Sequence record: OR352947.1
Strand: one strand, 5' to 3'
DNA from: Escherichia phage AV117
DNA length: 64,000 nucleotides
In this document: piece after piece, positions 8,828 to 61,158 of the stretch
Layout of the letters: every line of letters starts with the position of its first letter
How positions within the stretch are numbered: the first letter of the stretch is position 1
Notes under the pieces: model-generated
Seen by the model: the letters and a program-made list of their open reading frames with translations, nothing else
Database searches by the model: none
What the model was told of the DNA's origin: nothing
Program-made: the position numbers and the translations under genes

Positions 8828-9928
8828 TTACGCTGCGAAGATTTTATCCCACATCGCAACAACTGCATCTCGATTATACTTCTTCCATACTGCTTCAGCA
8901 CGTTTAACTCGAGCTTCGTATGTGTCAGTGAATTCTAATACAGCTTTTGTGTAAAGCGCAACTACTTCTTTCTTAGGAGTAGAGGAATCAATTTCTACAC
9001 GCACAGTATCTGGGTCGTATTCGAATGTCGCATGAGGATAATCCTTAAAAACTAACTGGATTACAGGGACACCTTTAGAGATAGCTTCAATAGAACTATT
9101 CTCTACTGTACCCGTGTCAGGACACGTATTAATAAGTGCTTTAGCTGTTTTAAGACGTTCCATGATTTCACTGTGTGGAGCATCAATAATAACAGGATAT
9201 TTAGCTGGTGGTGCCCATTTGCTTGGACAGTATCCTGCGCCATTTTCGCCTAGTGCTTTAATCGCTTCAAGAGCAACATCAGTACGACGCATTTTAGTGT
9301 CATAACGTTGTGCACTAATAATCAGATCAGTCGCCGGAAGAACTTCAGGTTTCTCATTCAAACAAATAACCGGATAATCTTCGGCTTCAAACAACGGATT
9401 TGCTCGCCAATAATCATAATCAATTTTGTCAGTCAGACCTGAAGTCATATAACAATATTTGCGTTCAAATTCACGGAAGGCTTTAGTAGGAGCATAACTC
9501 TTACCACCATTCTTATGAATTTGAATAGTCTGGTCCCAAATTTGAACAATGCCACGAGATACCGGTTCAAATGGTGTTGCCATAAAATTCTTATGAACTT
9601 TAGAGAGACCTGCGTCTTTAATTGCCTGAACGGTTAGTTTAGTCGGTTCCATAGTAACAACAAAATCGTATTCATGGATGCCGGCTAGTTCAACAATCTT
9701 ACGAGCCATAGTATAACTCATACCTAGACTGAATTTAGTCAGATGACCAACAGGATGGTGTGTAACTTTCCAGTCACCAAACGTGTCATTGTCAAAGCCG
9801 ATATAATCAATATCAGCACCGATGGACACAAGATATTTCAACACATTTAAATGTACTGCTTCAAGACCACCTTGTACACGGTCAGGATTAAATGGGACTG
9901 CACGAGATGGGATAAACATAACTTTCAT
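8828..9928 (-). CDS. putative GT-B fold glycosyltransferase, candidate hmC-DNA glycosyl(arabinosyl)transferase
   Basis: 366 aa; C-terminal TGTVENSSIEAISKGVPVI resembles the E-x7-E donor-binding motif of GT-B enzymes; lies between rIIA.1 and gene 39 where T4 has gene 60; no T4 agt/bgt homolog seen in the window. Confidence 0.5.
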   Translation of the reverse strand: MKVMFIPSRAVPFNPDRVQGGLEAVHLNVLKYLVSIGADIDYIGFDNDTFGDWKVTHHPVGHLTKFSLGMSYTMARKIVELAGIHEYDFVVTMEPTKLTVQAIKDAGLSKVHKNFMATPFEPVSRGIVQIWDQTIQIHKNGGKSYAPTKAFREFERKYCYMTSGLTDKIDYDYWRANPLFEAEDYPVICLNEKPEVLPATDLIISAQRYDTKMRRTDVALEAIKALGENGAGYCPSKWAPPAKYPVIIDAPHSEIMERLKTAKALINTCPDTGTVENSSIEAISKGVPVIQLVFKDYPHATFEYDPDTVRVEIDSSTPKKEVVALYTKAVLEFTDTYEARVKRAEAVWKKYNRDAVVAMWDKIFAA

Positions 9929-17557: not shown

Positions 17558-17559
17558 AA

Positions 17560-18306
17560 TTAACCTTTAATCAGTTGGAATAATGATGCGCTAAGTGGTA
17601 AGCCACGTTTCAATTTTAATTTACCAATGAAACCAATCTTTTCAAAACGTTGCAGACCTTGGATAACTTTATCATATGTATCGAAAAGCGATTCAGCGTC
17701 AGTTAATTTAGTTTTAGTTTTCCAGTCAGAGCCTTTAAGAAGAACGTTGAGTTTAGTAAGTTCATGGCCTTCTGCTTGATGTGAGCCATTAATGCGTGCT
17801 TTCAAAGCAACAATTCTAAGTTTAGATTCGTTAGATAAAGGTTGATTTTTCATCATGTTCGCCATATGCTTAACACGATTTTCACGTTTTGCTCGGATTT
17901 TTAAAATAGTACCATAAACCTTTTTAATTTGGGCCCATTTCTTCTCGTCGAGATTAAGTTTCTCTACTTTACGGGCAGAAGGATTAGCGATACGTCTTGC
18001 AATGGCATCACGTTTCTCAATAAGTTCTTCTAATGTTAAATCAGAACGAGCCGTGTTATATTTTTTCTTAACTGGGATAACATTACCTTTAATGTAGCCG
18101 ATATCGTTATTAAAACGTTCTAAGGATAATTTCTCACCTTCAACAGAGTTATTGAAAGATTCACCTGAGTAAGCGCAGACCTTTTGATCAAGAATGTTTT
18201 TAAGGTAATTAAAATCTAAGTTAAAATCCTTAGAGCGTCTCTTCGCAGAAGCTCTGGTGTGGTCAAGACGACGATTGATTTTGTTAATTTTATTATTTGA
18301 TAACAT
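17560..18306 (-). CDS. hypothetical basic protein (srd map position)
   Basis: 248 aa, Lys/Arg-rich; positional equivalent of T4 srd, sequence identity not verified. Confidence 0.45.
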   Translation of the reverse strand: MLSNNKINKINRRLDHTRASAKRRSKDFNLDFNYLKNILDQKVCAYSGESFNNSVEGEKLSLERFNNDIGYIKGNVIPVKKKYNTARSDLTLEELIEKRDAIARRIANPSARKVEKLNLDEKKWAQIKKVYGTILKIRAKRENRVKHMANMMKNQPLSNESKLRIVALKARINGSHQAEGHELTKLNVLLKGSDWKTKTKLTDAESLFDTYDKVIQGLQRFEKIGFIGKLKLKRGLPLSASLFQLIKG

Positions 18307-18346
18307 AATATTTTCCTCTGTCTTACGGACGTTAGGTCATTTAGCT

Positions 18347-18384
18347 GATAGGTCTATAATATCATGCCCTCAGGTAGTGTACAC
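18347..18384 (-). promoter_or_regulatory. early promoter
   Basis: GTGTAC-N17-TATTAT-AGACCTATC. Confidence 0.5.
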
Positions 18385-18458
18385 TCTTTTTTCGTAAAAT
18401 GCTTTAATTTTTTATGTGTTATAATGGTTCTGAGTTCCATCTGGTTATTCCAATCCAG

Positions 18459-19067
18459 TCAGTAACTGACAATAGACAGATTCCAGATTGTATAACGTCC
18501 GTCTTGAATAATAGAATCTACACGCAGTGTAGTCCCTATAGGGAGCATAAATTCACATTCGTCAGATATAAGTCTAGCATTAGACCGTCTTGTCGCTTCA
18601 GGGAAAGCTCCATTGAACTCGCAAGATGGTGCAGCCAGAATCATATTAAGCATATGTTCACGGAAGTTGAAAGCAAATGGTGCATCTTTGATGCAGAACA
18701 TATTAAATGTTCCATAAAAATTATATGAAGCAAAGTTACGTGCCACACCAAACACTGGACTAAAGCTCATTACTCTGTCAAATTTAATAATACTACCAAC
18801 GCCTTTATCATCGAGTGTGGCCATAGTTTTCTTAGAGATTCCACGATACATTGTCTCAGGAACTGAAGAAGACCAATTTCTACGAACAATTGCACTTAAA
18901 TCTTGTTGGATGCTGTCTGGCTTGTTTTCCATACACTGCCACAGTACACTTTGTTCAATGTCACTGAATTGCTCATCGATTTTGTACTGAAGCATATCTT
19001 GATAATCCGGGCATTGAGCACGACGAACCATTTCTTCAATTTCACACTCGTTATACGGCATAAACAT
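18459..19067 (-). CDS. modA: ADP-ribosyltransferase, ModA-like
   Basis: 202 aa; R (MYRGIS), S-x-S (SFSP) and E-x-E (DECEF) elements of R-S-E ADP-ribosyltransferases; paralogous to next ORF; T4 modA/modB map position. Confidence 0.65.
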   Translation of the reverse strand: MFMPYNECEIEEMVRRAQCPDYQDMLQYKIDEQFSDIEQSVLWQCMENKPDSIQQDLSAIVRRNWSSSVPETMYRGISKKTMATLDDKGVGSIIKFDRVMSFSPVFGVARNFASYNFYGTFNMFCIKDAPFAFNFREHMLNMILAAPSCEFNGAFPEATRRSNARLISDECEFMLPIGTTLRVDSIIQDGRYTIWNLSIVSY

Positions 19068-21577: not shown

Positions 21578-22114
21578 TCAGTAACCATTATCCTGGCGTT
21601 CAAAGTTGTGTTGGTTTTTCAAGTAGTAAAGTTTAAAGATTTCTTCAGCGGAAAGACCAAGACCTTGGAACATATTCAGAACAAAGTGCAGAATATCAAT
21701 CATCTCGAATTTAATTTCGAGCTGGTCTTCAGGAGACAGTTCATCGATACGACGATTTCGATATTCAGCATGTTGAGCTTTCCAAGGCTTCCATACAGAG
21801 CTAGCGGCTTTTTCACCATTGCTCATACCACCGAGTGAAGTCAACAGTTCACGGAATTCATCATCAATATAATCTTTCTGATTACGCAGCCAATCAACAA
21901 CATCGCCAGCAGTGGCCAATTCGTCAGGATGTTTGTTATGTTCAGGCTTATCATTTGCCAGACGAATCTGTAAAGATTTCTGCATATCAAGCATTACCTG
22001 CAGAGGGTCTTTATCTTCATGAATCAGAGCATTAAAATAAGCTTCTTCTGCTTTATCAACACCAGAAATAAGTTGTGAACATTCGTTAAAGTGCGCCATT
22101 ATTTTTCCTTTCAA
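21578..22114 (-). CDS. 56: dCTPase/dUTPase (gp56, MazG-like dCTP pyrophosphatase)
   Basis: start probably MAHFNEC (as in T4 gp56); DKDPLQVMLDMQ...LANDK and C-terminal EIFKLYYLKN blocks match my recollection of T4 gp56. Confidence 0.88.
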   Translation of the reverse strand: MKGKIMAHFNECSQLISGVDKAEEAYFNALIHEDKDPLQVMLDMQKSLQIRLANDKPEHNKHPDELATAGDVVDWLRNQKDYIDDEFRELLTSLGGMSNGEKAASSVWKPWKAQHAEYRNRRIDELSPEDQLEIKFEMIDILHFVLNMFQGLGLSAEEIFKLYYLKNQHNFERQDNGY

Positions 22115-30175: not shown

Positions 30176-30724
30176 TTAACGAGCCCATTTGATAATTTCT
30201 GTAATCAAATTATTACGTTCGCTTGCATTAAATCCTATAACTTTGTTAGCACCATCATGATTAAGTAATTGATACGTTTGGATTTTGTTATGAATTGCAA
30301 ACTCTTCAAAATATGAAATGACTGTATTAAAACCGAATGAAGACAAAGTAATAAGGTCGTCTTCAAAACTTTCAGTCATTTCGTTACGTGTTAAAATAAT
30401 TGTGAACACATCATGGTTTTGGCAAAGACGAACATAATCCTGTTCATAAACGTCAAGAACCGAGTCCACATCTTGTCGAATACGTCCATAAACCCAGTTA
30501 CTAATATATCCACGGTCTAACAGATAAATCTTAGTAGGGTCTAAATAATTCAACATCGTTTCGAAACAGCCAACTTCATTTCGAGACTTAACATCGAAAC
30601 GTCCATCAACTGTTCGTTTAGGGAAATCAATCTTTACATATCTTTCACTAATTTCCATTATGTCATTAATGAAAGTTGTTTTACCAGCATTATCCGGGCC
30701 ATCTACTAAAATAATTTTAGCCAT
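30176..30724 (-). CDS. thymidylate-kinase-like P-loop nucleotide kinase
   Basis: 182 aa; P-loop ILVDGPDNAGKTT (compare Tmk GxEGxGKTT) and LLDRGY (Tmk DRY-like motif). Confidence 0.55.
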   Translation of the reverse strand: MAKIILVDGPDNAGKTTFINDIMEISERYVKIDFPKRTVDGRFDVKSRNEVGCFETMLNYLDPTKIYLLDRGYISNWVYGRIRQDVDSVLDVYEQDYVRLCQNHDVFTIILTRNEMTESFEDDLITLSSFGFNTVISYFEEFAIHNKIQTYQLLNHDGANKVIGFNASERNNLITEIIKWAR

Positions 30725-30725
30725 T

Positions 30726-31625
30726 TTATTCCTCGATTACGACATCTTCATATTTAGGTATATTATACGGCGAAGAAATTAAAGCATTAAAGTAGATGAA
30801 CTCGCCAAGACCTGGATGGAATACTTCTTCAGGATTTTCGAAGTATTGAATCTTCGGACGTCCTTTAAGAATTTGATAGTACTCAGTTTTAGTTGGTTTA
30901 AAAATTCGAATCAGCGCTTCTTCAGGATACTTATTTCTGTCGAAGCTATTATTTGGATCGGTTATATAAAGCGGTTGACCTAATTGAATTGCACATTCAA
31001 CCACTTGTTCAAAACGATAGCACGGGTCACTAATTCGAAATGGATGAAAAATACCATCTAGATGAATAGGAGCCAAATCACCTACAAGACGCTGCATGAT
31101 GGAAGGACGTATAACTTTCTGCGTTACGATAATCTTATTACCATCTGCACCTGCGTTAACCAGCACTTCTTTTTGACGTTCATTCAACACAGTAGTTTGA
31201 AGTGAACGATTAACAGACAACATGTCGGTTTTTAAGAATTCGTCAATATAAAAACGTGGTTTATTAGGGTCTGCAGTGATATTGAAATTGAATTCTACGT
31301 CAAAAGTGCCGTCATATCCAGTGATATCTGTGATTAGAAAATCACAATCATAATAATCAATTAATGAATCAACCACAAATTCATTTTCAGACCAGAAATA
31401 TTTACGAGTGTTATATGCGTTATCTTTATACCATAATGGAACAAACTTAAATTCTGGGAAAAGTCGTTCACATTCTTTAATATCAGATGCATTACGTGGA
31501 TATGTAATCACATCACCCGGATTAGCACGGTGCAAATGAAGTTGGAAGTTGCCATCCTTAAGGATAGCATACTGTCCAGTTTCATAAGACCGCATACTCA
31601 AGATAGGTACGCGGAAAATAGCCAT
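30726..31625 (-). CDS. hypothetical enzyme (299 aa) in the T4 beta-gt map position
   Basis: no recognisable motif; 1-nt gap to downstream kinase and shared stop/start with the hydroxymethylase. Confidence 0.5.
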   Translation of the reverse strand: MAIFRVPILSMRSYETGQYAILKDGNFQLHLHRANPGDVITYPRNASDIKECERLFPEFKFVPLWYKDNAYNTRKYFWSENEFVVDSLIDYYDCDFLITDITGYDGTFDVEFNFNITADPNKPRFYIDEFLKTDMLSVNRSLQTTVLNERQKEVLVNAGADGNKIIVTQKVIRPSIMQRLVGDLAPIHLDGIFHPFRISDPCYRFEQVVECAIQLGQPLYITDPNNSFDRNKYPEEALIRIFKPTKTEYYQILKGRPKIQYFENPEEVFHPGLGEFIYFNALISSPYNIPKYEDVVIEE

Positions 31626-32341
31626 TAGTCAAGGAATCCTTTAACATAATCAAAATCACGTTCAAACACATGGGCACTTACCATGGTATGAGTATAATCA
31701 CCAACTTCTACACCACATTCTTTAGCGATATAATGAAGTAATTTTCCTTGGAGATAAAAATCCAACTGCATAACAACAGCACAGTTCTGAGAACGCATAT
31801 GGCAGTGGGTATAAAGCTTACCATCACGAATATAATAAGTCACTGAGTCAGTACATGGATATTCAAGTGTTTCGTCCGAATCAAGCAAAGCCTGATCTGA
31901 ACTTTCAAGAATTTGAAACACAACTCTTCGAGAGTTAGGTTTTTCTTTAAGTTCTTTTAGAAGAGTTGGTAACTGGGCCGCAATGCGAGGACCGTAGAAA
32001 GTGTTGAAGTTTGCAGGCAAAGCATCTGATTTCGGTTTAGAAATAAATTTAGCGACGTTAGGATATGCCTTAAATGCTTCTTCTGCATCAGTACCACCAG
32101 AAATCATAAATTTCCAGAAATCTTCAGCATATTCATAAGAGATGCGATTAATACGTGGGTCGGTCATTTTGAATGATGAAGGGGTATCAACAACTACTGT
32201 CATAGACCCAATTTCATTACAACGTCCAATACGAGAATCAGTAACGAACTGTGGATTTTCTAAAATTTCACGATTGACAGCTTTAAATGCGGATTGAAAA
32301 TCTTCGGCTTTAATATATTTCATTGTGTTATGTTTTCCCAT
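31625..32341 (-). CDS. 42: deoxycytidylate 5-hydroxymethyltransferase (gp42-type, thymidylate-synthase fold)
   Basis: 238 aa; PNSRRVVFQIL, YPCTDSVTYYIRDGKL (catalytic Cys), MRSQNCAVVMQLDF align by eye with the T4 gp42 blocks I recall; an Asp appears at the base-specificity position. Confidence 0.78.
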   Translation of the reverse strand: MGKHNTMKYIKAEDFQSAFKAVNREILENPQFVTDSRIGRCNEIGSMTVVVDTPSSFKMTDPRINRISYEYAEDFWKFMISGGTDAEEAFKAYPNVAKFISKPKSDALPANFNTFYGPRIAAQLPTLLKELKEKPNSRRVVFQILESSDQALLDSDETLEYPCTDSVTYYIRDGKLYTHCHMRSQNCAVVMQLDFYLQGKLLHYIAKECGVEVGDYTHTMVSAHVFERDFDYVKGFLD

Positions 32342-32354
32342 GTTTACCTCAATA

Positions 32355-32390
32355 CAGTTATTATATACTCAATTCATAAAGCTTATTTGA
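32355..32390 (-). promoter_or_regulatory. candidate MotA-dependent middle promoter upstream of the hydroxymethylase gene
   Basis: minus strand AAGCTTTA (MotA-box-like) - 11 nt - TATAAT, then GAGGT RBS; approximate. Confidence 0.4.
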
Positions 32391-32478
32391 ATTTCTTAGC
32401 GATGTTGATATAACGTAGAGCTTCGGCTTAGTATTCCAATTGAACAGGTCCTTTAATCACTTTAGCCGCTTTAGTTTC

Positions 32479-32502
32479 AAAAAGGCCCTTATGGGCCTTT
32501 TT
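32479..32502 (-). terminator. strong symmetric hairpin terminator after the 386-aa gene
   Basis: aaaaaggccc-ttat-gggccttttt: 10-bp stem flanked by A5/T5, could terminate in either direction. Confidence 0.55.
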
Positions 32503-32579
32503 AAGAATTTGTTCGTTGCTGTTAATTTTAATAGTCAAAATCTCTTCGTTAAGTTGGTGGTTAAAAGTTTTTCTAGAAA

Positions 32580-33740
32580 TCATTCTGGGTACCTCAAAGC
32601 GTCATCAGAGTTAGTTATATCAATAATAGATATAGAGTTTTCTGATAACCCATTTTTAGATAACTGACGTTTATAATATCTTTCACAATATGTACACGTC
32701 GTCCCACAGATTTCATTAGCACAATCGAAATCTGGATGTTTGAACCACCTTTTTTCTAAAAAGCCGTCTAACAAAGAGGTTTCAATATTTACCGTATGTG
32801 AAAACTCAGTCTCATTTTCAAGAGTGAAAATGGTCTCTAAAGGCTTCCACAATTCCAACAAATTACCTTCAAATTTTTCAGAAGCATAAGCTTCAAGAAC
32901 TTTCAAAATGTAGTCTGTGCTACCTGTACGTCCTGAAACTTTGAATTGAGTGATACCAATATCATTATAAAGTTTCAAATCTTGAGGACGAACAAAACGA
33001 GTTCTCAACCAGTTAAATGGGTCTGTATCACGAGCTTTAATACAGTGTTGCATTGGATATCCATTTAAGGATTTGGCATCATCTACTGTAACGTCAGTGC
33101 TATGGAAAATATAGCAAGAGTCACGATAGCTACAATGTGTTGTATACCCTTTACCAGCATTAGAACAGAACTCATTTACAAGAACTTCAAATATTATATT
33201 GTTCTTATTACAAAACTCTGCTGCACGTTTCAGGAAAGAAACTGAACGGTTCTTATGAATTCCACAGCAGACCTTTTTGATATTATATTGGTCATGCAAG
33301 TATTTGATTTGAGTTACAGCATCGACATGTAGAATTGTTGAAACTTCAATCTCAATGTCTTTATTGACTTCACGAACAATTTCCATAACAACAGGGTTAG
33401 CGATAGTAATACGCCATACGCCTATTGACCAAAGATACTGAACATAATCCTGAATAGCTTTCTTCTTCCACTCAACTAGTTCTCTTTTTGAACCAGGATT
33501 TATCGTGTTGAGTGTATAGTTAAAGCAAATACCTAATTCGTTACAACGTTTAACGTAATCTTCTAACATCTTTTTGTCAACGTCAGGAAGCCTAAAATCA
33601 GGTCTGGCTGCTACAAAAGCCATTTCTCTTGTAGAGCCGTATACTTCGTTTATCAAGCTATTAGGATAAGTTTTATTGAGCTCTACGATTTTATCAAGAA
33701 GAGCTAAATCAAAATTCGTTCCGATTTTAAAAGTATTCAT
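32580..33740 (-). CDS. hypothetical Cys-rich enzyme (386 aa)
   Basis: C-terminal cluster CANEICGTTCTYCERYY (contains C-x3-C-x2-C) plus internal VCCG and CS..AGKGYTTHCSYRDSC; possible metal/Fe-S site; function unknown. Confidence 0.5.
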   Translation of the reverse strand: MNTFKIGTNFDLALLDKIVELNKTYPNSLINEVYGSTREMAFVAARPDFRLPDVDKKMLEDYVKRCNELGICFNYTLNTINPGSKRELVEWKKKAIQDYVQYLWSIGVWRITIANPVVMEIVREVNKDIEIEVSTILHVDAVTQIKYLHDQYNIKKVCCGIHKNRSVSFLKRAAEFCNKNNIIFEVLVNEFCSNAGKGYTTHCSYRDSCYIFHSTDVTVDDAKSLNGYPMQHCIKARDTDPFNWLRTRFVRPQDLKLYNDIGITQFKVSGRTGSTDYILKVLEAYASEKFEGNLLELWKPLETIFTLENETEFSHTVNIETSLLDGFLEKRWFKHPDFDCANEICGTTCTYCERYYKRQLSKNGLSENSISIIDITNSDDALRYPE

Positions 33741-33800: not shown

Positions 33801-34202
33801 TTATAGATTCGGTTTATATGATTTAAATGTTTCGAATTCGCCTTTATTCATAAGAGCTTTGAATTCGTCAGGACGCATAGCTTTGTCGTCGATAATCCAA
33901 TCATATACTGGTTTATGTGTTAGCAAATTATGGTACTTCAATCCAATGTTTGCCAAGTTCTGAATCAGACTTGGGAGAATGTCAATTGCTATACGACCAG
34001 GACCGACTGACTTCATACCGCGAGCAGTGTAAAGCGTTATGGTATGCCCTGCATCATACAGGGCATTAATGGCAGACACCATTTCGACGTCTGGTTTGAA
34101 GTTCACGTAATCACGATTGTTATTCCACTCTGTTATACAATCATCGACATCAAAACAAAGATTAAGCATGTTTTCTACACGGTGCATTAGATTCGTTCCC
34201 AT
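33801..34202 (-). CDS. HAD-superfamily phosphatase, small cap-less (KdsC/GmhB-like) form
   Basis: 133 aa; motif I FDVDDCIT (DxDx[TV]), LYTAR, K, DWIIDD; overlaps the upstream gene by 16 nt. Confidence 0.6.
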   Translation of the reverse strand: MGTNLMHRVENMLNLCFDVDDCITEWNNNRDYVNFKPDVEMVSAINALYDAGHTITLYTARGMKSVGPGRIAIDILPSLIQNLANIGLKYHNLLTHKPVYDWIIDDKAMRPDEFKALMNKGEFETFKSYKPNL

Positions 34203-35872
34203 TGATGAGTGATATCGCCACCGATTGGACGATAAGAAACACCGGTTTCTTTATCAGTTAGTACCCATTTACCAGGATTTTTTGTAATCAGAGTAGCCGT
34301 TACAGGTTCTGCTACGTCATAACTAATAGAGCCGTCCTGAAGTACACGGCCCATGTTACGTAATTGCTTAGTCAGAAGTTCCATACCTTTATAATATGCG
34401 GCTACCGCTTTAAGTGGATTATTCTTGAAATAACCACCTAATGCAATCCAGATAATTGCCGCTGCCAAATGATGATACTCGTTAAACGAACTCATCTTTC
34501 CATATTTGTAAACTAATGGATTGATGTTAATAGACACATTACAAGTTGTTTCATCGATAGTAAACTGTCCCCAGGTCGGATTAGCATTGAATTCATCATA
34601 ACCTGAAACAGCGTAAAGCACTTTAGCTTCATCATACAATTTTGGGCCGTAAATCTTGGTTTCGCCAAAATATCCACGAGGGTCGATAAACTTGACTTCG
34701 CCGTTATCAGTAATCATAGTATTACTGAAGTTCGGGTCACCATGAATAACAGAGTACTGTCCCTGAGAACGGTTATGATAACGAATAAGGTGTTCTAAAG
34801 CTTGTTTCAGCATTGGTTTCAGACGCCCAATCTTAGTGTAGTTCACATGTGTGATTTTACCAAATGAATCAATCAATGGTTGAATACTTTCACAACGATC
34901 AATGACTTTAGTATAGAATTCTTTAGTGAAATCACGACGAACAGTTTCAGGACTTACAAAATAAGTGTCTGTGCTGAATTTCAGTGCGTCTAAAATTGCA
35001 TCAACAATTTGTGGACGAGCAAGACTCGATTTGGATTTAATATATTCAAATGCTGGCTTACCTTTAATGCGTTCCATTTCAAAGTTATTTTCATTAACAG
35101 AAACTAACTGAGGAACTGAATCTGATTTCACTTTAAGATACCATGAAATCTCATCTTTCTGAAGAGCTCGACCCTGTTCGGTTAATGCGAATTTAGTTAC
35201 AGTTTCTTCACCAATTTCAACTGCATTAAAACTACGATTAAGTTCACGAACTTCATGAGCTTTTTCAAGTTTAGGCATATCACCTAAATCAATTAGATTC
35301 ATAAGCTCTGATTTATTGAATGCGCTGCCGTAAAGGAATTCTACGAAATCGCGTCCTTTGCAGTATTCATGAATTTCCTCATCAGTAGAACCCATATAGA
35401 ATTCCCAGTCTTTGAACTGATAAATTCCTACAACATTACCACCTGTTGAACCTACGTTAGTGATATTTTCACCGTCGAAATTATATCGACATTCGTCACC
35501 CTTAACATAGATTGCGTTAACATTCCAAGACCATGAACCAAAATCAGGAATAATATCACACCAGTTAACAATTACATTATGGCCGTCTAAATCTTTGTGC
35601 AATTTAGCAAGAGCATAAGCAGAACCATACGCTTCATCAACTGTACGAATAGTCACATTGAACCCTTCTTGCTCACAATAAGCTCGAACAGTTTCAGCAA
35701 ATTTTGAATGAACTACTACAATAATTTCATCTGCGCCAAGGTCAGAATAAATTGTATACAAATTGCTCAGAATAGTGTCTTGTTTATAATTAACAAGCAC
35801 CTTAGGAATATGATGCGTTATTGGATACAAACGAGTTGCCAGTCCAGCACCAAGAATAACAGCTTTTTTCAT
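34187..35872 (-). CDS. bifunctional sugar-1-phosphate nucleotidyltransferase (N-terminal) / APH-like anomeric sugar kinase (C-terminal)
   Basis: 561 aa; N-terminal AVILGAGLATRLYPIT..IPK (RmlA/GlmU-type GxGTRL motif); C-terminal VIHGDPNFSNTMI and FIDPRG (HxDxxxxN catalytic loop and IDxxG of aminoglycoside/choline-kinase fold). Confidence 0.7.
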   Translation of the reverse strand: MKKAVILGAGLATRLYPITHHIPKVLVNYKQDTILSNLYTIYSDLGADEIIVVVHSKFAETVRAYCEQEGFNVTIRTVDEAYGSAYALAKLHKDLDGHNVIVNWCDIIPDFGSWSWNVNAIYVKGDECRYNFDGENITNVGSTGGNVVGIYQFKDWEFYMGSTDEEIHEYCKGRDFVEFLYGSAFNKSELMNLIDLGDMPKLEKAHEVRELNRSFNAVEIGEETVTKFALTEQGRALQKDEISWYLKVKSDSVPQLVSVNENNFEMERIKGKPAFEYIKSKSSLARPQIVDAILDALKFSTDTYFVSPETVRRDFTKEFYTKVIDRCESIQPLIDSFGKITHVNYTKIGRLKPMLKQALEHLIRYHNRSQGQYSVIHGDPNFSNTMITDNGEVKFIDPRGYFGETKIYGPKLYDEAKVLYAVSGYDEFNANPTWGQFTIDETTCNVSININPLVYKYGKMSSFNEYHHLAAAIIWIALGGYFKNNPLKAVAAYYKGMELLTKQLRNMGRVLQDGSISYDVAEPVTATLITKNPGKWVLTDKETGVSYRPIGGDITHQWERI

Positions 35873-35913
35873 GTTGTGGTCCTCATTGGTAAGTAGGAGT
35901 ATTGTACACTATT

Positions 35914-36057
35914 CTAGTTAAAGCATTCATACTTTGCTTGTAGTCCAATCATAATCCATCCGATTATAAGAGTCGGAACCATTACTGGAGCCGTTAAGCT
36001 CCAGTAGATAGTCATGACAAGCATCAATAGTAAAAGTCCTATTGTTATTGCTTTCAT
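35914..36057 (-). CDS. small membrane protein (about 47 aa), translationally coupled to the isomerase gene
   Basis: MKAITIGLLLLMLVMTIYWSL...; ATG overlaps the SIS gene stop (ATGA); GAGG RBS; approximate. Confidence 0.35.
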   Translation of the reverse strand: MKAITIGLLLLMLVMTIYWSLTAPVMVPTLIIGWIMIGLQAKYECFN

Positions 36058-36689
36058 TGTTCGCCTCGTAACATGGCACCTAGTGCACCGCCAGGGTGGA
36101 ACTTAAGGAAGTCATTAGAGGTAAATCCACGCTCAGACGAAAGGTTGATAGCAAACGTATCGATAAGCGCTAACAACAATGTAGTGGACATAGTCGGAGC
36201 CAGAGAATTCTCATCAACCTCTACTGCGATGCCTGTACAGAAAGAGTAATCAAAAAGGGCTTCATTTTCTTGTGGAATGTCTGGGTTACAATGCAACAGA
36301 ATCTGTTTGACGTTAGGACGAATCATTTTAAGATGCTTAGCCACGCCTATCATTTCTTCAGTTTTACCAGAACGACTAATATGAATCAACACATCATTAG
36401 GCGCAATGAATCCTGCATCACCGTGAGAATAATGCCCAGTGTTCAAGTACATACTCGGGATACCGAGTGAAGCAAATGTCTCAGAAGCTTTAGTTGCAAT
36501 ATTAGCATTCTTACCAACACCCGTAATAATTACTCGGCTTTCATAATTACTAAGTCCAGGGCGTCGAAGAGTTTCTAGAATAGCATTATAACGAGCAGGG
36601 TTTTGACTAATTACTTTGGCCATAGCGGCCAAAGAAGAAGCTTGTTTTATGATTGCGTCAATAGCGATAGTAATAGGAGTAGTTTTCAT
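36054..36689 (-). CDS. arabinose-5-phosphate isomerase-like SIS-domain protein (KpsF/GutQ-type, no CBS domains)
   Basis: 211 aa; FASLGIPSMYLNTGHYSHGDAGFI, ISRSGKTEEM, LAPTMSTTLLLALIDTFAI and RGFTSNDFLKFHPGGALG align block-for-block with the KpsF motifs I recall. Confidence 0.78.
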   Translation of the reverse strand: MKTTPITIAIDAIIKQASSLAAMAKVISQNPARYNAILETLRRPGLSNYESRVIITGVGKNANIATKASETFASLGIPSMYLNTGHYSHGDAGFIAPNDVLIHISRSGKTEEMIGVAKHLKMIRPNVKQILLHCNPDIPQENEALFDYSFCTGIAVEVDENSLAPTMSTTLLLALIDTFAINLSSERGFTSNDFLKFHPGGALGAMLRGEQ

Positions 36690-42897: not shown

Positions 42898-44586
42898 TTA
42901 TGAAACAGTCATTACCGTAAATCGTCCAACTTTGCTCATCTGAAGATGTTGTCCGTACCGTTGAGGGTCATGGTCTCGATGGGAGATAATGAACACATTA
43001 GTATTTTGTAAACTTCCAAGGATGGTATCTATAGCCTTAACAGCCTCAGAATCGACAGCACCATCAAAAACCTCATCAAGAATCAGAGTGTTGATTTTAA
43101 CACCAGAGACCTTTTCAGCAATATCTCGCCATGTAAACAACAATGCGATATCGATACGTGCCTTTTCACCTTGACTAAATGAAGCATAACTAAAATCTTC
43201 ACGACCACGTGATTTTATAGATTCATTGAATTCTTCGTCAATAGAAAACACGTAATCAGCTTCCATGATTTTAAGATAATGGTTAATCTGCTTGTTGAAC
43301 AGAGGCACATATTTTTTAATGATAGCACCTTTAATACCAGAATCTTTTAACATATCTGTGATAATACCACGATGGTATTTTTCAAGAACGATATCTGATT
43401 TTGTTTTAATGATTTTATCAAGTTCTTTTTGAAGCAAAGCTATCTCATCGGCATGGTCGATAAATTCAGCTGAGGCTTGTTCTATTGCAGCTTTAACTTT
43501 CTTAGCTTTATCAATAGTGGCAATCATTGCTTGTTTCTTAGTACGAATATCAGATGCAAGGTCCTGTTTAGTCTTAACATTAGCTCTATATTCGTCAACT
43601 AGGACACTCAGATTATCTCTGTGACATGTAAGTTGCTCGAATGAGTGATTACATTCGTGAAGCTTATCGGTAATCTTAGAGACAATAGGGTCACCCTGGT
43701 GCAACTGTGATGCGCAAGTAGGACATGTACCACCATCATGATACATCTTAATAACTTTATTATATGAGTCAATTTTAGATTTAATCAAGAATGCTTCTTG
43801 TCCTATCTTGTTGAATGCCTCAGTAGGGTCTTCATCAAGAACGATATTAAGTAGTCGCTCATTAGCTTCTTCGATTTCTGCTTTTAATGAACGAGCTTCT
43901 TTGGCTAGGTCGTCATACATATTCTGTAGACGCGCTACATTATCACCAGATAATTTCTTTTGACGTTCGATATTCTCGTTATAAATCTTAATTTGTTGGA
44001 TAATACCATCTTTCTTGGCATCGAGAACTTGTCCCTGGGAATTAAGTTCTCGAACTTGAGACTTATTGATTTTATCCATTTCAGCGAGTGTGCCGACTTC
44101 TAAAAGGTCTTCGACAAGTTTTCTGCGAGCAGGGGTGCTAAGAGCCATGAAAGGGGTATACCCTGCCGTCCCAAGCACAACGATTTGTTTAAAAGACGCG
44201 TATGACATTCCGATGCTACGTTCAAATTCTTCTTGGAAGTCACGACTGCTGGCAGATTCATCAAGACGAACACCGTCAACGGAGATTTCGAAAATATTGG
44301 GTTTTTGGCCACGTTTAATGAAGTATTTTTTACCATCGAATTCCATCCAAAGCTCAACTAAGAGCTCTTTCTTGTTCGTGCTATTAATGATTTGCCCTTT
44401 CTTAACATCACGAAATGGTTTACCGAAAAGTCCGAAAGTAATGGCTTCTAACATCGTAGATTTACCACCACCATTTTTACCAGTGATTAATGTCTTTTGG
44501 ACTTTATCTAATTGGATGTCAATAGGATTCCCACCTACCGACATGATGTTTTGATAACGAACACGATTTAATTTAAATGATTTCAT
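42898..44586 (-). CDS. 46: recombination endonuclease subunit gp46 (Rad50/SbcC-like ATPase)
   Basis: 562 aa; Walker A GKNGGGKST, long coiled-coil with CPTC zinc hook, C-terminal signature/Walker B (LILDE). Confidence 0.93.
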   Translation of the reverse strand: MKSFKLNRVRYQNIMSVGGNPIDIQLDKVQKTLITGKNGGGKSTMLEAITFGLFGKPFRDVKKGQIINSTNKKELLVELWMEFDGKKYFIKRGQKPNIFEISVDGVRLDESASSRDFQEEFERSIGMSYASFKQIVVLGTAGYTPFMALSTPARRKLVEDLLEVGTLAEMDKINKSQVRELNSQGQVLDAKKDGIIQQIKIYNENIERQKKLSGDNVARLQNMYDDLAKEARSLKAEIEEANERLLNIVLDEDPTEAFNKIGQEAFLIKSKIDSYNKVIKMYHDGGTCPTCASQLHQGDPIVSKITDKLHECNHSFEQLTCHRDNLSVLVDEYRANVKTKQDLASDIRTKKQAMIATIDKAKKVKAAIEQASAEFIDHADEIALLQKELDKIIKTKSDIVLEKYHRGIITDMLKDSGIKGAIIKKYVPLFNKQINHYLKIMEADYVFSIDEEFNESIKSRGREDFSYASFSQGEKARIDIALLFTWRDIAEKVSGVKINTLILDEVFDGAVDSEAVKAIDTILGSLQNTNVFIISHRDHDPQRYGQHLQMSKVGRFTVMTVS

Positions 44587-44837
44587 ATGTATTCTCTTCG
44601 AATGAAGTCCTCTACATATTTTAACATGTCATCTCTATCAGCAAAATATTCATCTAGTTCTGCATACATAACAACACCTGGTGCGTACTCACAGGTAACG
44701 TACATTGTTCCAAAGAAACGAGGAGTTGATTCCTCGTAATTCTCAGTCCATTCAACGATACCAATATAACCATCACCAATACTAAACTCATGACGATGGA
44801 TTTCATAATCTGTCTTAGTCATTATATGCATCCTCAA
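44583..44837 (-). CDS. hypothetical protein (84 aa)
   Basis: ORF between 46 and 47. Confidence 0.45.
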   Translation of the reverse strand: MRMHIMTKTDYEIHRHEFSIGDGYIGIVEWTENYEESTPRFFGTMYVTCEYAPGVVMYAELDEYFADRDDMLKYVEDFIRREYI

Positions 44838-45066
44838 TACACGCTTCAGCCATTTTAAGAATAGAGCCAGGAGTATCGTTGTCCATTATATTAAAGCTAA
44901 ATTCAATAGCCCAGTCGGTGCAGACATGAACTGCTTTAACTTCATTGCCTTCAACGCGTAATGGCTCAATCCAATACTTGATAGTGTTCTCGAATCCATC
45001 GTCATCTTTAACGTCCATTTCAACTTCAAGGTTGAGTCCAGCATTGTTAAATTCATCTAAAGTCAT
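44815..45066 (-). CDS. hypothetical protein (83 aa)
   Basis: ORF between 46 and 47. Confidence 0.45.
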   Translation of the reverse strand: MTLDEFNNAGLNLEVEMDVKDDDGFENTIKYWIEPLRVEGNEVKAVHVCTDWAIEFSFNIMDNDTPGSILKMAEACIEDAYND

Positions 45067-46082
45067 TGTGTTGCCTCAATATAAAGTTCGTTGGAATATT
45101 TGACCAGCGCTTCTCTGTCTTCGTCTGAGATATCTGGAATCGCGTCAATATATTCTTTAATGATATCTTGAAGTGATTTAATCTCGATTTCCTGGTCGTC
45201 ATCAGATTCAACACTGTTATCAACTTTAGAAACCATACGAAGAGAGTGAACTACTTTTTCAAGTTCAGATTCAAACTTAGTCAACTCTGAATCAATTTCT
45301 GATACTATAACACGTACGGCTAGATTAGTATAATCAGAATAATTGATTTTGCCTTTAAACGGATAAGTGATTCGTCGATGCCATGTTGTTTCATTAGGAA
45401 TAAATTCCATACGTTCAACATCGGTGTCAAATACCCAGAATCCTCGAGGGTCGTTTTCATCACCTGCAGTAAGGGTCCATGGTGTCCCAATATATTTGAC
45501 GTTAGCAGCTTCAGAGATTGTGTGGAAGTGGCCGGACCAGACTTGTTTATAGGTCTTTAAGAAATCAGGTTCAAGCCCATGAGACTTCATTCCTTTATAG
45601 AAATAAAAGCCATTCAGTTCCCAGTGCCCAACACAAAAAGAAGCAGATGAAGTTTTGATATGTTCAAGAATTTCACCAGTATTTTCTTCGCACATCCAAG
45701 GAATTAAATCAATCAAACATCCGTCAAAATCTACTGTAGTAGGCTTATCATATACTTTAACATTAGGATATTTAGCTAAAAGCTCAGTAGAAGCGTTTGG
45801 AGTTAAAGTATTTTTAAAGTGCATATCATGGTTTCCTACAACAGTATGTAGGGTAATACCAGCATCATCAAGCATTTGAACTATTTCACGTGCGAACTCC
45901 ATAGTTTTATGCGTGATTGCTTTTCGCACATCAAAAATATCACCGTATTGAATCCATGTAGTAATTCCATTTTTCTTGGAATATTCTATCGCCTGCTTAA
46001 TTCCATCCAACTGAATGGATTGAACCCACTCATCATCGGCTTTAACACCTAAATGCCAATCACCTAAATTTAAAATTTTCAT
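45063..46082 (-). CDS. 47: recombination endonuclease subunit gp47 (Mre11/SbcD-like)
   Basis: 339 aa; calcineurin-like phosphoesterase motifs (LGDWH, GNHD, GHWE). Confidence 0.93.
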   Translation of the reverse strand: MKILNLGDWHLGVKADDEWVQSIQLDGIKQAIEYSKKNGITTWIQYGDIFDVRKAITHKTMEFAREIVQMLDDAGITLHTVVGNHDMHFKNTLTPNASTELLAKYPNVKVYDKPTTVDFDGCLIDLIPWMCEENTGEILEHIKTSSASFCVGHWELNGFYFYKGMKSHGLEPDFLKTYKQVWSGHFHTISEAANVKYIGTPWTLTAGDENDPRGFWVFDTDVERMEFIPNETTWHRRITYPFKGKINYSDYTNLAVRVIVSEIDSELTKFESELEKVVHSLRMVSKVDNSVESDDDQEIEIKSLQDIIKEYIDAIPDISDEDREALVKYSNELYIEATQ

Positions 46083-46134
46083 ATTATTTCCTCATTAGTT
46101 AATTCATTCTATCATCCGTTTATAAAGCAAAAAA

Positions 46135-46154
46135 AGGAACTCCGAAGAGTTCCT
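46135..46154 (-). terminator. UUCG-tetraloop terminator upstream of gene 47
   Basis: aggaactc-cgaa-gagttcct; minus RNA followed by UUUUUUUGCUUU. Confidence 0.6.
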
Positions 46155-46368
46155 ATCCACATAGTACACCGTACAGAGGCTCATTTGAACTTTTAAATCG
46201 AATGGGCTTGTATGTAATAGTTCCTTCTGCTTTAGCTTTATCATGAGACTCTTTAAAACGTCTCATCATTTCTACTTTAGAGGAACGAATTTTATTATAA
46301 TCTATTTCAGAAGTCGGGATGTTCGTCATGCATAAGCACCTCTCAGAAAATGCCTAAATCAATTTCTC

Positions 46369-46590
46369 TCATCGTTTCCACCATTTCTTAACTTGAAATG
46401 AATCAACCCACACGAGTTGTTTTGGGTCTGCCTTTACAATAGGCGGACAAATTTCTGTAATAGAACCGTCGTGATATTCCTTTTCAGAGATTTTAACACA
46501 AAGAGGACCTCCCAATTTAAGGGTGAATCCTGCGTTCAGATTAAGACGTTTAAACTTTGTTTGAACTAGCGCCATTAATGATGTCCTCAA
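46369..46590 (-). CDS. hypothetical protein (73 aa)
   Basis: ORF. Confidence 0.4.
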   Translation of the reverse strand: MRTSLMALVQTKFKRLNLNAGFTLKLGGPLCVKISEKEYHDGSITEICPPIVKADPKQLVWVDSFQVKKWWKR

Positions 46591-46873
46591 TAGCCTGACG
46601 AGTAGTAACCCACTGGATTTTAATTAACTTGTCATTATATGGTTGTCGTAGAATATCCCGAGATTTCTTAATAGCATATTCGTAAGCTTCGAAGTTGTTT
46701 TGAATTGCTGCTTCTTGAGCATGAGCATAAAGACGGTTTAGTTCAAAACGATTCTTTTTAAGAATCTTTTCGGATTTTTTACGTGCTTCAGCTTCATTTT
46801 TCTTTTGGATTTCTTGTAGCATTTTAGCTACTGCATCTTCTGCTTCTTTATTTTCAATAATCTCGGTAGTCAT
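46550..46873 (-). CDS. hypothetical protein (107 aa)
   Basis: ORF, predicted helical. Confidence 0.45.
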   Translation of the reverse strand: MTTEIIENKEAEDAVAKMLQEIQKKNEAEARKKSEKILKKNRFELNRLYAHAQEAAIQNNFEAYEYAIKKSRDILRQPYNDKLIKIQWVTTRQAIEDIINGASSNKV

Positions 46874-46874
46874 A

Positions 46875-47168
46875 TTATCTCATTAAATTAAAATAAAAAC
46901 GTCCATCCTCTTCAATACAGAACTCATACTCGACCGGAGTCCCATTTATCGAAAATGACACGTCATGTGGGTTCAAAGGGTCGATGTCAAAATTAATTTT
47001 AAATTCACGACCCAACAGTTTTATCAAATAAGGGATTGCTTCGTCAAAAGGTTCTTCTAAGTAGTTAGAGATGTCAATTGTCATCCTCATATAAAAAATC
47101 CAAACTAGGCGAATCGCTAACAACTTCCTTCTTTTCAGCCCCAGGAGCTTTATAAGCGGATTCTTCAT
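46875..47168 (-). CDS. hypothetical protein (start probably internal)
   Basis: the track ORF overlaps the gene 55 3' end. Confidence 0.4.
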
Positions 47169-47631
47169 AATGCGTCATTTTATCGTAGATGTCTTGAATA
47201 AACGTTTCATCTACCAACGCTACCATATCATCGTCATGACTGTCGTAGACGTTATGAACGAAGTAACTATATTTCTTTGCAACTTCCTTACGTTCTTTTT
47301 TGATACGTTGGACAAAAGCATTAAAACAAGCTCGAGTTATGTATGCATGTGGGTTATTGTACTTAGTTTCGTCGAAATTATGAAGTCCCTTAATAGAGGC
47401 TTCAATCCCATCTGCAATCATCTCCTGCTTCCAAGACTGGGTATATCCTGAAAAGTTGAAACGTTTGGACAGGCCTTCGGCGATAAGCATAATTGCTAAA
47501 CCGATGGTATCATTCTGACGAATAATTTTGTTTGGGTCTTTATTATTTAAGAGCTCCTTTTTCCACTCGATTATAGCGGCGAGAAGCTCTTTATTATTCA
47601 CATAGTTATTTTTAGGTTTTTGTTCAGTCAT
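47074..47631 (-). CDS. 55: late-transcription sigma factor gp55
   Basis: 185 aa; [64 protein letters not shown] matches my recollection of T4 gp55. Confidence 0.95.
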
Positions 47632-47703
47632 AAGTACCTCTTAGCTCAATTCATAGGTCTATTATATCATAATATTTAGAGACCTATCTTAAAGCACGAG
47701 ATA

Positions 47704-48593: not shown

Positions 48594-48832
48594 TATTCCG
48601 TGATAAGATAATGTAAATAGTTTGCTTGACGAACACTGATATCAACACCCATATCAAAGATACCTTTATAGAACGGGTATTTGTTTTCAGTAGAATCTAG
48701 ACTAAAAGCCTTTCCACCACAACTAACGGTAATAGCATCAGTTAAAGTGTCATATACAAACTTAATAGTTGAGCCATTCACTACGACTTCAAGACGTTTT
48801 TTCGATGTAATAACGTCTAATTCTTGTTCCAT
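48593..48832 (-). CDS. hypothetical protein (79 aa)
   Basis: ORF. Confidence 0.45.
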   Translation of the reverse strand: MEQELDVITSKKRLEVVVNGSTIKFVYDTLTDAITVSCGGKAFSLDSTENKYPFYKGIFDMGVDISVRQANYLHYLITE

Positions 48833-48895
48833 GATATTTTCCTCATTTTAAGACGATAGGAAGATAATAACACGTCTTCCTATCGTTGTACATTA

Positions 48896-49108
48896 TTAAC
48901 CGAACTTTTTAGCGCCTTTCCAGCCTTCATACATAGCTGCACAAGTCAGTAGTACAGCGTGCTGGCATTCTTTGTATTTGTAAATCCAGAACCAACGTAA
49001 AAAGTCTTCGTCCTCAACGCCGTTGAGTTTCATATTGGCAAAGAATTCGGCACGTTCTTCACGAAGTTGCCATGACACAATATTTTCAGGATTCATTTTG
49101 TGTTCCAC
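48896..49108 (-). CDS. hypothetical protein (70 aa)
   Basis: ORF. Confidence 0.45.
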   Translation of the reverse strand: MEHKMNPENIVSWQLREERAEFFANMKLNGVEDEDFLRWFWIYKYKECQHAVLLTCAAMYEGWKGAKKFG

Positions 49109-49320: not shown

Positions 49321-49555
49321 CTTTTTTCAACTTACGAACTTCTTTGCGGAGTTGTCGATTCATTTCGTTCTTGACTTCGGAATCAACGCCTTTCATACGT
49401 TTCCATTTATCTGAGCGGAAAATGTTTTCAACCATGTCTTTGTGGCTAACACCGTCAGGAGCTTTACGTTTACCAAAATAGTCGTAATCACGAACTTTCA
49501 AATCTTTACGACGATACGTTTTACCCATAAGTACCTCAGAGGTTGATTGATACAA
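49235..49555 (-). CDS. hypothetical basic protein (106 aa)
   Basis: Lys/Arg-rich ORF. Confidence 0.45.
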   Translation of the reverse strand: MYQSTSEVLMGKTYRRKDLKVRDYDYFGKRKAPDGVSHKDMVENIFRSDKWKRMKGVDSEVKNEMNRQLRKEVRKLKKDVYSKEDYDYNTSHTEAKRKANECYRYS

Positions 49556-49784
49556 TGCGTTTGATAAAATTCATTTCACTTACTGAAAGGTCTTTAAGAC
49601 CGATTGATTCTAAACGCTGAGTAAGCGTCAACATTGGGATATAGTCCCATTGTGTTTTAGACGTTTGATAAGTACGGACGCCATTAGCAATTTCAACATG
49701 CAAATCGGAAATGGTAACGAATACTGGACGTTCGTTGTTTACATTAAGAGTTAGAACAACTTTCTTTGAATCTAAACTAATCAT
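49536..49784 (-). CDS. hypothetical protein (82 aa)
   Basis: ORF. Confidence 0.45.
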   Translation of the reverse strand: MISLDSKKVVLTLNVNNERPVFVTISDLHVEIANGVRTYQTSKTQWDYIPMLTLTQRLESIGLKDLSVSEMNFIKRIVSINL

Positions 49785-50083
49785 GGCTTAATTTCCTTCG
49801 CAATTGAACAGAAGATACCACGGTCACAAAGCATTTCACCAATTTCTGGATATTTGATTGAACGGTACCAAACATCCAGGCTTGAAACTCTGGTTATCTG
49901 TATTGCATTACCATTGACAGAATAGTACTGGTCGACCTTAATTTCTTTATCTTCAATTGTCATTTTATTTTCCTCTATAGTAGATGGTTTAATCTTAACA
50001 CATCTATTGAGGATGTAAACTGTTTTATGAAAATATTTTCGATTTGAGAGGGGCACAAGGAGATAGTGAAGTGAAGATTCCAA
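49781..50083 (-). CDS. hypothetical protein (100 aa)
   Basis: ORF. Confidence 0.4.
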   Translation of the reverse strand: MESSLHYLLVPLSNRKYFHKTVYILNRCVKIKPSTIEENKMTIEDKEIKVDQYYSVNGNAIQITRVSSLDVWYRSIKYPEIGEMLCDRGIFCSIAKEIKP

Positions 50084-60156: not shown

Positions 60157-61158
60157 TTATTTCAGTAAAGTTACTTCAGAGATTTCCTCCCAACCATCTT
60201 TATCAGTTGAAATAAAATCTGCTACATAAAGAGCCGTACGTAATGATACATTGCGAAGACGAGATACGTTGGCCTTCATCCAGGACAATGCTTTATACGT
60301 TTCTGCATCTGTCAGACCACGTTTCTGCATCATGTCAGTAGATAATATTACATCTTCAACTCGAACCATAATCTCTTCATTAGAGTGTACTCCGAGGTCG
60401 AGATACACTGAACGAGATACTAAAGCTTGAAGGTGTGGGGCAAGTTTCGAACCGCGTTCTAACTCTTTATCGATATCAACGTTTGTAATGAAAACGATAG
60501 TACCTTCAAACTCAAATTCTTTATCAATACCCTTATCATCGAGATAAGATGACGCAGTGCTCCAGCAAACTTTGCGTTTATCTCCAGTATCTAATGCTGC
60601 TTTAAGAAGGTTCAAGATGTCCATATCCGAGAATACGTCAACGTCGTCGATTAAGAGAACGCTGTCTGCATCACGGTTGAGCCAAAGTTGTTCGTAAAGG
60701 CCAATACCAGAGATTTTACCATTAATGCTTTTGTATTTGATGAAACCATTATCATTAGCATTATTAAGTGCTTTATCCAGAGAATACGTCTTACCAATAC
60801 CAGCTGCACCTGAAATAATGAGTGAACGAATTTTGCCATCGATAATGCCATTCGTCATCATGTTCATTACTTTAAAGCGTTTGTTGATACGAGTTTTCAT
60901 ATCTTCAGTGCTTTCAACAACTGCAACTGGTGATGTCTCAACTCCTTCCATTACGATGTCTGATTTGAAGACCCATACTCCACGTTCAGAACCATCAATC
61001 ATAACGAAAATTTTACCATCACCTAAGTGGGAACATTCAGGATTAAGCTTTGCCGGGAACCATGTCTTTGTGGCAACATAAGAACCAGAGATTTCGTTAT
61101 TACGATAGATACCTTTTTTGATTTGAACGTTGAACATTTTATTCTCCAATTTACTCAT
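60157..61158 (-). CDS. P-loop NTPase of unknown function (333 aa)
   Basis: Walker A SGAAGIGKT and Walker B VLLIDDVD; N-terminal domain of about 110 aa with no recognised motif. Confidence 0.55.
   Translation of the reverse strand: MSKLENKMFNVQIKKGIYRNNEISGSYVATKTWFPAKLNPECSHLGDGKIFVMIDGSERGVWVFKSDIVMEGVETSPVAVVESTEDMKTRINKRFKVMNMMTNGIIDGKIRSLIISGAAGIGKTYSLDKALNNANDNGFIKYKSINGKISGIGLYEQLWLNRDADSVLLIDDVDVFSDMDILNLLKAALDTGDKRKVCWSTASSYLDDKGIDKEFEFEGTIVFITNVDIDKELERGSKLAPHLQALVSRSVYLDLGVHSNEEIMVRVEDVILSTDMMQKRGLTDAETYKALSWMKANVSRLRNVSLRTALYVADFISTDKDGWEEISEVTLLK

Follow-up and report, generated by a model that had tools for sequence, protein, structure and literature searches.

A gene 47–55 interval without alpha-glucosyltransferase and a cytosine-arabinosylation gene set in the RB69-like Escherichia phage AV117

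In phage T4, the alpha-glucosyltransferase gene a-gt lies between genes 47 and 55, and the corresponding interval of Escherichia phage AV117 raises the question of why this gene is missing there and what the modification genes of the phage provide instead. The window analyzed is a stretch of 64,000 nucleotides of AV117 (sequence record OR352947.1), and all positions refer to its first nucleotide. Judged by sequence, its source is a Mosigvirus of the JS09/RB69 type and a relative of T4. The 3-kb stretch around the interval was 98–99% identical to the JS09-type Mosigvirus phages pEK20, PNJ-6, and ST0, and RB69, the type Mosigvirus, reached 93% identity over positions 45002–47695. The glucosyltransferase genes a-gt, b-gt, and ba-gt were not found in the window or in the rest of pEK20, and it is highly probable that arabinosyl-5-hydroxycytosine chemistry is used instead of the glucosylated 5-hydroxymethylcytosine (hmC) of the T-even phages. 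Mosigviruses would lack all three genes because the T-even chemistry is not used by them at all.

The lack of a-gt and b-gt and the arabinose chemistry of RB69-type phages are already known from publications of 2018, 2025, and 2026. For RB69, the absence of a-gt, b-gt, and ba-gt homologues and the occurrence of arabinose in the DNA were reported by Thomas et al. 2018 (PMC6024577, section 3.2), and the lack of a-gt and b-gt homologues was also stated by Lee et al. 2026 (PMC13326640). The present analysis covered gene content, orthology, the GT-B fold, the absence of glucosyltransferases, and the exact indel, while enzyme activities and DNA chemistry are taken from the literature on RB69 and HY126.

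The empty a-gt slot and the search for glucosyltransferase genes

The genes of the region are all encoded on the minus strand and follow the T4 order 45, rpbA, 45.2, 46, 46.1, 46.2, 47, small open reading frames (ORFs), and 55. The first-pass annotation had described positions 46083–47073 as an interval between genes 47 and 55 without an alpha-glucosyltransferase, and this description was exact, as gene 47 starts at 46082, gene 55 ends at 47074, and the space between the two contains no ORF of about 400 aa. Its count of three small ORFs of 73–107 aa has to be replaced by four conserved ORFs of 58, 68, 107, and 69 aa, which are the orthologues of a-gt.2 to a-gt.5 (Table 1). The placement of a-gt between genes 47 and 55 in T4 was likewise right, and the T4 interval additionally holds 47.1 and the homing-endonuclease gene mobB.

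Genes 47, 55, and a-gt.2 to a-gt.5 are orthologous to those of T4. The products of genes 47 and 55 were 86 and 91% identical to their T4 counterparts and 88 and 99.5% identical to those of RB69, respectively. For a-gt.2, a-gt.3, a-gt.4, and a-gt.5, identities to the T4 proteins were 91, 69, 58, and 45%, and those to RB69p067, RB69p068, RB69p069, and RB69p070 were 79, 98.5, 100, and 98.6%, respectively. All four small ORFs are listed in PHROGs as function unknown, and three of the four matched a Pfam domain of unknown function (DUF), with 129.5, 96.6, and 48.4 bits for DUF5486, DUF2654, and DUF5491 in a-gt.2, a-gt.4, and a-gt.5, above the gathering cut-offs of 27, 25, and 27.

The difference from T4 could be narrowed to a single indel. 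A 2252-bp block of T4 comprising 47.1, a-gt, and mobB is represented in the window by 34 bp within a 70-bp intergenic region. Homology to T4 in the blastn comparison covered positions 45042–46084 and 46119–47696, and 16451–18702 of the compared T4 stretch remained unmatched. In the Klebsiella phage Mineola (Jiaodavirus), the same cassette of a-gt.5 to a-gt.2 occurs between genes 55 and 47, but, unlike in the window, an a-gt homologue with 66% identity to that of T4 separates a-gt.2 from 47, and 47.1 and mobB are absent. The slot is thus filled in two genera, Tequatrovirus and Jiaodavirus, and the interval in the window is the conserved a-gt.2 to a-gt.5 cassette minus the a-gt insert. The RB69 counterparts have carried the a-gt.2 to a-gt.5 names since deposition of that genome. 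As conservation of the cassette does not depend on the presence of a-gt, these names denote position only and imply nothing about glucosylation.

The wider claim of missing canonical T-even glucosyltransferases was borne out, as neither the window nor pEK20, the closest complete genome, gave a homologue of a-gt, b-gt, or ba-gt. Searches with T4 a-gt and b-gt by tblastn gave nothing credible in the 64-kb window, where the best b-gt match (E = 1.8, word size 2) fell within an unrelated gene. As a proxy for the complete genome, the window was combined with the rest of pEK20, to which the window ends map at 8249 and approximately 113,124. In this combined sequence, neither a-gt nor b-gt had a match at E ≤ 1, and the T2-type ba-gt of phage PP01 gave only a match of E = 1.3 within an unrelated gene. 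The same queries recovered their own genes in T4 at 100%. Listed a-gt homologues among 50,697 phage records were of the Tequatrovirus type with 90–100% identity or from Klebsiella and Raoultella phages with about 66%, and the b-gt homologues came from other groups.

One weak tblastn match of T4 a-gt at 61011–60772 (E = 0.011, word size 2) disappeared at default settings and was rejected as spurious. The 333-aa ORF at this site (60157–61158) showed in Pfam only weak, sub-threshold matches to AAA-ATPase and helix-turn-helix domains.

The arabinosylation gene set and its proposed pathway

The complete cytosine-arabinosylation gene set of RB69 is present in the window with protein identities of 97–100%. 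The first-pass annotation had listed genes 42 and 56 as hmC synthesis genes. Gene 56 and a ThyA-family gene at the gene 42 position are indeed there, but the latter is of the RB69 gp48 type, which yields 5-hydroxy-deoxycytidine monophosphate (5-hydroxy-dCMP). Its product was 97.9% identical to RB69 gp48 and 25% identical to T4 gp42 over 218 aa, versus 62–91% for the products of genes 41, 43, 44, 45, 46, 47, and 55, and orthology to T4 gp42 at the identity level of core genes was not found. Its entire length matched PDB entries 9iqc, 9ir2, and 9iqu (E = 8e-161), and its catalytic Cys163 and cytosine-specifying Asp194 align with the FMCTN and RND motifs of T4 gp42. With RB69 gp48 and a phage deoxynucleoside monophosphate kinase, 5-hydroxy-deoxycytidine (5hodC) and not 5-hydroxymethyl-deoxycytidine (5hmdC) enters DNA in vivo, and gp48 binds flavin and takes its oxygen from O2, as seen by 18O2 incorporation (PMC13326640). 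The ThyA homologue is accordingly best assigned as an orthologue of 5-hydroxy-dCMP synthase, with the activity taken from that study, and "gene 42" in Mosigvirus annotations should not be read as dCMP hydroxymethylase. At 32386–32583, the gene of the ThyA homologue is separated from the U32-like gene by a small ORF, a homologue of RB69p049 with only 77% identity. Its neighbors are 98–99% identical to RB69, and this ORF stands out as a local patch of variation within the modification cluster.

Two candidate DNA glycosyltransferases were identified, and they are GT4-like and not orthologues of a-gt or b-gt. The ORF of 366 aa was 99.2% identical to RB69p003 and matched the PDB entries 9iqz/9ir0, "phage HY126 glycosyltransferase", over its full length (E = 6.5e-250). 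The ORF of 299 aa is flanked by uvsX and the ThyA homologue, a position that corresponds to that of b-gt in T4, and its predicted structure is a GT-B fold, while a phmmer search of it against PDB sequences gave nothing. In Foldseek, MshA (3c4q) was among the top matches of the transferase candidates, and T4 b-gt was not among the matches listed.

Among the enzymes of sugar supply (Table 1), the ORF of 561 aa was 99% identical to RB69p052 and RB69p053, with a Pfam NTP_transferase domain in its N-terminal and a kinase-like domain in its C-terminal part. The RB69 reference splits both ORF046/047 and ORF052/053, which are single ORFs of 299 and 561 aa in the window. A published statement attributes these splits to sequencing errors, in agreement with the single ORFs seen here.

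The pathway that has been published can be applied to these genes. The dCTPase gp56 would supply dCMP, which the flavin-dependent ThyA homologue would convert to 5-hydroxy-dCMP, to be phosphorylated and incorporated in place of cytosine. The cluster between uvsX and the DNA polymerase gene, with arabinose-5-phosphate isomerase, kinase/uridine diphosphate (UDP)-sugar pyrophosphorylase, and HAD phosphatase, would produce UDP-arabinofuranose. In the literature, this synthesis proceeds from ribulose-5-phosphate via arabinose-5-phosphate, and the proteins in the window are 97–100% identical. The 5-hydroxyl group would finally receive one and two arabinoses from the two GT-B transferases, with the product of the 299-aa ORF acting first and that of the 366-aa ORF second. 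Mono- and di-arabinosylated 5-hydroxycytosine were found in RB69 virion DNA by liquid chromatography–tandem mass spectrometry (LC-MS/MS) and nuclear magnetic resonance, with m/z 376 and 508 for the respective deoxynucleosides (PMC13326640). As cited in that paper, the same pathway occurs in HY126 (He et al., Afh enzymes with crystal structures) and in Bas46, Bas47, and others (Mahler et al. 2025). Since such DNA contains no hydroxymethyl group, a-gt and b-gt would have no substrate in it. The type of modification predicts how a phage responds to type IV restriction, CRISPR, and DNA-glycosylase defenses, which is relevant for therapeutic use.

The proposed pathway shares its logic with the T-even glucosyl-hmC system. 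In both, a dCTPase and a ThyA-family enzyme lead to a C5-oxygenated dCMP that is incorporated for cytosine and then glycosylated by GT-B transferases with a UDP-sugar, and one transferase gene adjoins that of the ThyA homologue. The systems differ in the base, which is 5-hydroxy- instead of 5-hydroxymethylcytosine (PMC13326640), and in the sugar, with arabinofuranose from phage enzymes as opposed to host UDP-glucose. The GT4-like transferases of the window also show no sequence similarity to a-gt (GT72), b-gt (GT63), or the ba-gt of T2/T6. RB69 and other Mosigviruses with the arabinosyl system have the same gene order, likewise lack a-gt, b-gt, and ba-gt, and share the layout of 47, a-gt.2 to a-gt.5, and 55, with 95.7% DNA identity to RB69. 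The window departs from RB69 in gene 47, whose 5' half is Tequatrovirus-like, and likewise in part of a-gt.2.

Outside the window, pEK20 carries a 330-aa gene (35360–36352 of the compared stretch) annotated as 2-keto-3-deoxy-D-arabino-heptulosonate-7-phosphate synthase. KDO8P synthases, to which this type of synthase is related, act on arabinose-5-phosphate, and a link of the gene to arabinose-5-phosphate metabolism of the phage is conceivable.

Table 1. Positions of the genes and sequence features discussed
Feature	Position	Strand	Details
GT4-like glycosyltransferase (RB69 ORF003c/gp3), proposed second arabinosyltransferase	8828..9928	-	366 aa, next to rIIA
Gene 56 dCTPase/dUTPase	21578..22099	-	Pfam dUTPase_2; 96.5% identity to RB69 gp56
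Thymidylate-kinase-like nucleotide kinase (RB69 gp45)	30176..30724	-	97.8% identity to RB69p045, phrog_761
GT-B glycosyltransferase (RB69 gp46:47), proposed first DNA arabinosyltransferase	30726..31625	-	299 aa
ThyA-family enzyme at gene 42 position, RB69 gp48 orthologue	31625..32341	-	PF00303 at 1.5e-15
Peptidase-U32-like protein (RB69 gp50)	32580..33740	-	99% identity to RB69p050, PF01136
HAD-type sugar phosphatase (RB69 gp51; AfhF-like)	33801..34187	-	99.2% identity to RB69p051, phrog_1238
Bifunctional nucleotidyltransferase and kinase (RB69 gp52:53; AfhE-like)	34187..35872	-	561 aa; predicted UDP-arabinose maker (role: PMC13326640)
Arabinose-5-phosphate isomerase (RB69 gp55)	36054..36689	-	100% identity to RB69p055, Pfam SIS domain
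Gene 47, SbcD-like recombination nuclease subunit	45063..46082	-	339 aa, Pfam Metallophos; left border
Tequatrovirus-like recombination tract	45603..46082	-	5' 480 nt of gene 47; tile-wise comparison
34 bp in place of the T4 block	46085..46118	.	blastn of window versus T4
Middle-promoter-like site	46106..46131	-	read from sequence
Intrinsic-terminator-like hairpin GGAACUC-UUCG-GAGUUCC and U run	46128..46154	-	terminator scan, RNA fold
a-gt.2 orthologue	46153..46329	-	58 aa, DUF5486, PF17588 at 4e-38
a-gt.3 orthologue	46369..46575	-	68 aa (73 aa from upstream TTG), phrog_1648
a-gt.4 orthologue	46550..46873	-	107 aa, DUF2654, PF10849 at 1e-27
a-gt.5 orthologue	46875..47084	-	69 aa (97 aa from upstream ATG inside gene 55), DUF5491, PF17595
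Gene 55, late sigma factor	47074..47631	-	185 aa; right border

Other readings of the missing glucosyltransferases

Three other readings of the locus were weighed against arabinosylation. That hmC is made as in T4 but left unglycosylated, as a natural equivalent of the T4 a-gt- b-gt- mutant, agrees with the ThyA-family gene and the gp56 dCTPase at their T4 positions and with the catalytic Cys and cytosine-specifying Asp shared with T4 gp42. It is nevertheless extremely improbable, as the ThyA homologue belongs with RB69 gp48 (98% against 25% identity to T4 gp42), whose product in vivo is 5hodC and not 5hmdC (PMC13326640), and a full UDP-arabinose cluster and two GT-B transferases stand in the same window. 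Arabinose occurs in RB69 DNA (PMC6024577), and nucleoside LC-MS without 5hmdC has already been shown for that phage. The puzzle implied by the first-pass annotation, namely hmC made without any glucosyltransferase, therefore finds no support in view of the gp48-type "gene 42" and of the window's own genes, through which glycosylation would proceed with arabinose. A highly diverged orthologue of a-gt or b-gt beyond recognition by sequence is very unlikely as well. The 299-aa ORF would be an example by its b-gt position, but its reading as a degenerate b-gt was discarded on the fold ranking. The chance that the missing a-gt reflects an isolate-specific deletion or an assembly artefact is close to nil. 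The small size of the interval speaks for it and nothing else does. Against it, a single match extends over 80% or more of the 3-kb stretch around the interval in each of 146 phage records, the annotations of RB69, ST0, pEK20, and mar005P1 all read 47, a-gt.2 to a-gt.5, and 55, and the junction retains an intact terminator, promoter-like site, and ribosome-binding site (RBS).

No datum in this analysis contradicts arabinosylation, but several points limit it. Pfam (E ≤ 0.01) assigned no glycosyltransferase domain to either transferase and PHROGs lists both as function unknown, which is why their transferase nature is shown by PDB sequence matches and structure prediction. RB69 gp46:47 and gp3 are proposed and not demonstrated to act as arabinosyltransferases (PMC13326640). 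Outside the window, absence of the glucosyltransferase genes refers to pEK20 as a proxy for the phage's own genome. The modification of the DNA of this isolate is inferred from enzymes that are 97–100% identical to those of RB69.

Junction signals and mosaic tracts beside the slot

In gene orientation, the junction runs from the a-gt.2 stop codon through a hairpin with a U run, a MotA-box-like TTTGCTTTA, a -10 element TAGAAT, and an RBS to the ATG of gene 47. The hairpin has a UUCG tetraloop, resembles an intrinsic terminator, and overlaps the a-gt.2 stop codon, and the same hairpin is found 3' of a-gt.2 in T4 and RB69. Folding of the 93-nt junction was no more stable than that of shuffled sequences (z = -0.45, not significant), so the assignment as a terminator is based on the motif and on the fact that T4 and RB69 share it. 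The MotA-box-like TTTGCTTTA at 46131–46123 is separated by an 11-nt spacer from TAGAAT at 46111–46106, and the RBS GAGGA lies at 46093–46089. TTTGCTTTA would match the MotA-box consensus of T4 middle promoters, and on this basis the site, which is conserved in T4 and RB69, would act as a middle promoter. In T4, the homologous hairpin and promoter-like site are followed by mobB and a-gt, but in the window gene 47 comes directly after them. A sigma-70 promoter scan of the interval gave 8 sites against 6.9 ± 2.7 in shuffled sequences and thus no enrichment, and an Rfam scan of 45800–47400 gave only a chance-level snoRNA match (E = 0.52), well under the gathering score.

The sequences on both sides of the slot are of mixed origin. 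The tract at the 5' end of gene 47 (Table 1) was 97.5% identical to the Tequatrovirus PP01, with 92–100% per 60-nt tile, versus only 65–87% to the Mosigviruses RB69 and mar005P1. Mosigvirus-like sequence resumes at the start codon of gene 47, and this codon marks the edge of the a-gt slot. Within a-gt.2, positions 46203–46322 form another, short tract of the Tequatrovirus type, and the 120 bp at the slot between the tracts are 97–100% Mosigvirus-like. In PP01, 47.1 and a-gt are located between the sequences that match the two tracts, so DNA of a glucosyl-hmC phage would have entered both sides of the slot with a-gt either not brought along or not kept. The comparison of sequences indicates that DNA has been exchanged between glucosyl-hmC and arabinosyl-5-hydroxycytosine phages up to the indel boundary. 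That the tracts abut both sides of the empty slot is a side observation which is taken as new.

A stronger reading takes both tracts as recent imports from a glucosyl-hmC Tequatrovirus and holds that phages of incompatible chemistry exchange DNA up to the indel, with a-gt barred from transfer or else acquired and then purged as substrate-less in a 5-hydroxycytosine genome. On this reading, the flanking tracts might stem from conversion driven by a homing endonuclease, as mobB lies beside a-gt in T4. This is offered tentatively and appears rather doubtful. Two independent small conversion patches without special meaning are at least as likely.

Further variation was seen in the vicinity. A MobD-like homing-endonuclease gene separates 46.2 from 46 in the closest relative, pEK20 (35304–36164 of the compared stretch), and PP01 has an extra ORF of 284 aa between 46 and 46.1. 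At 44583–45066 of the window no MobD-like gene is found, and an 84-aa homologue of 46.1 is in its place. This neighborhood is a hotspot for mobile inserts. In addition, the 300-bp tiles in 42901–43200, 48601–48900, and 49501–50000 were approximately 80–89% identical to RB69 versus 96–100% elsewhere. These tiles, which may represent additional mosaic patches, belong to the 3' part of gene 46 and to small ORFs located downstream of gene 55.

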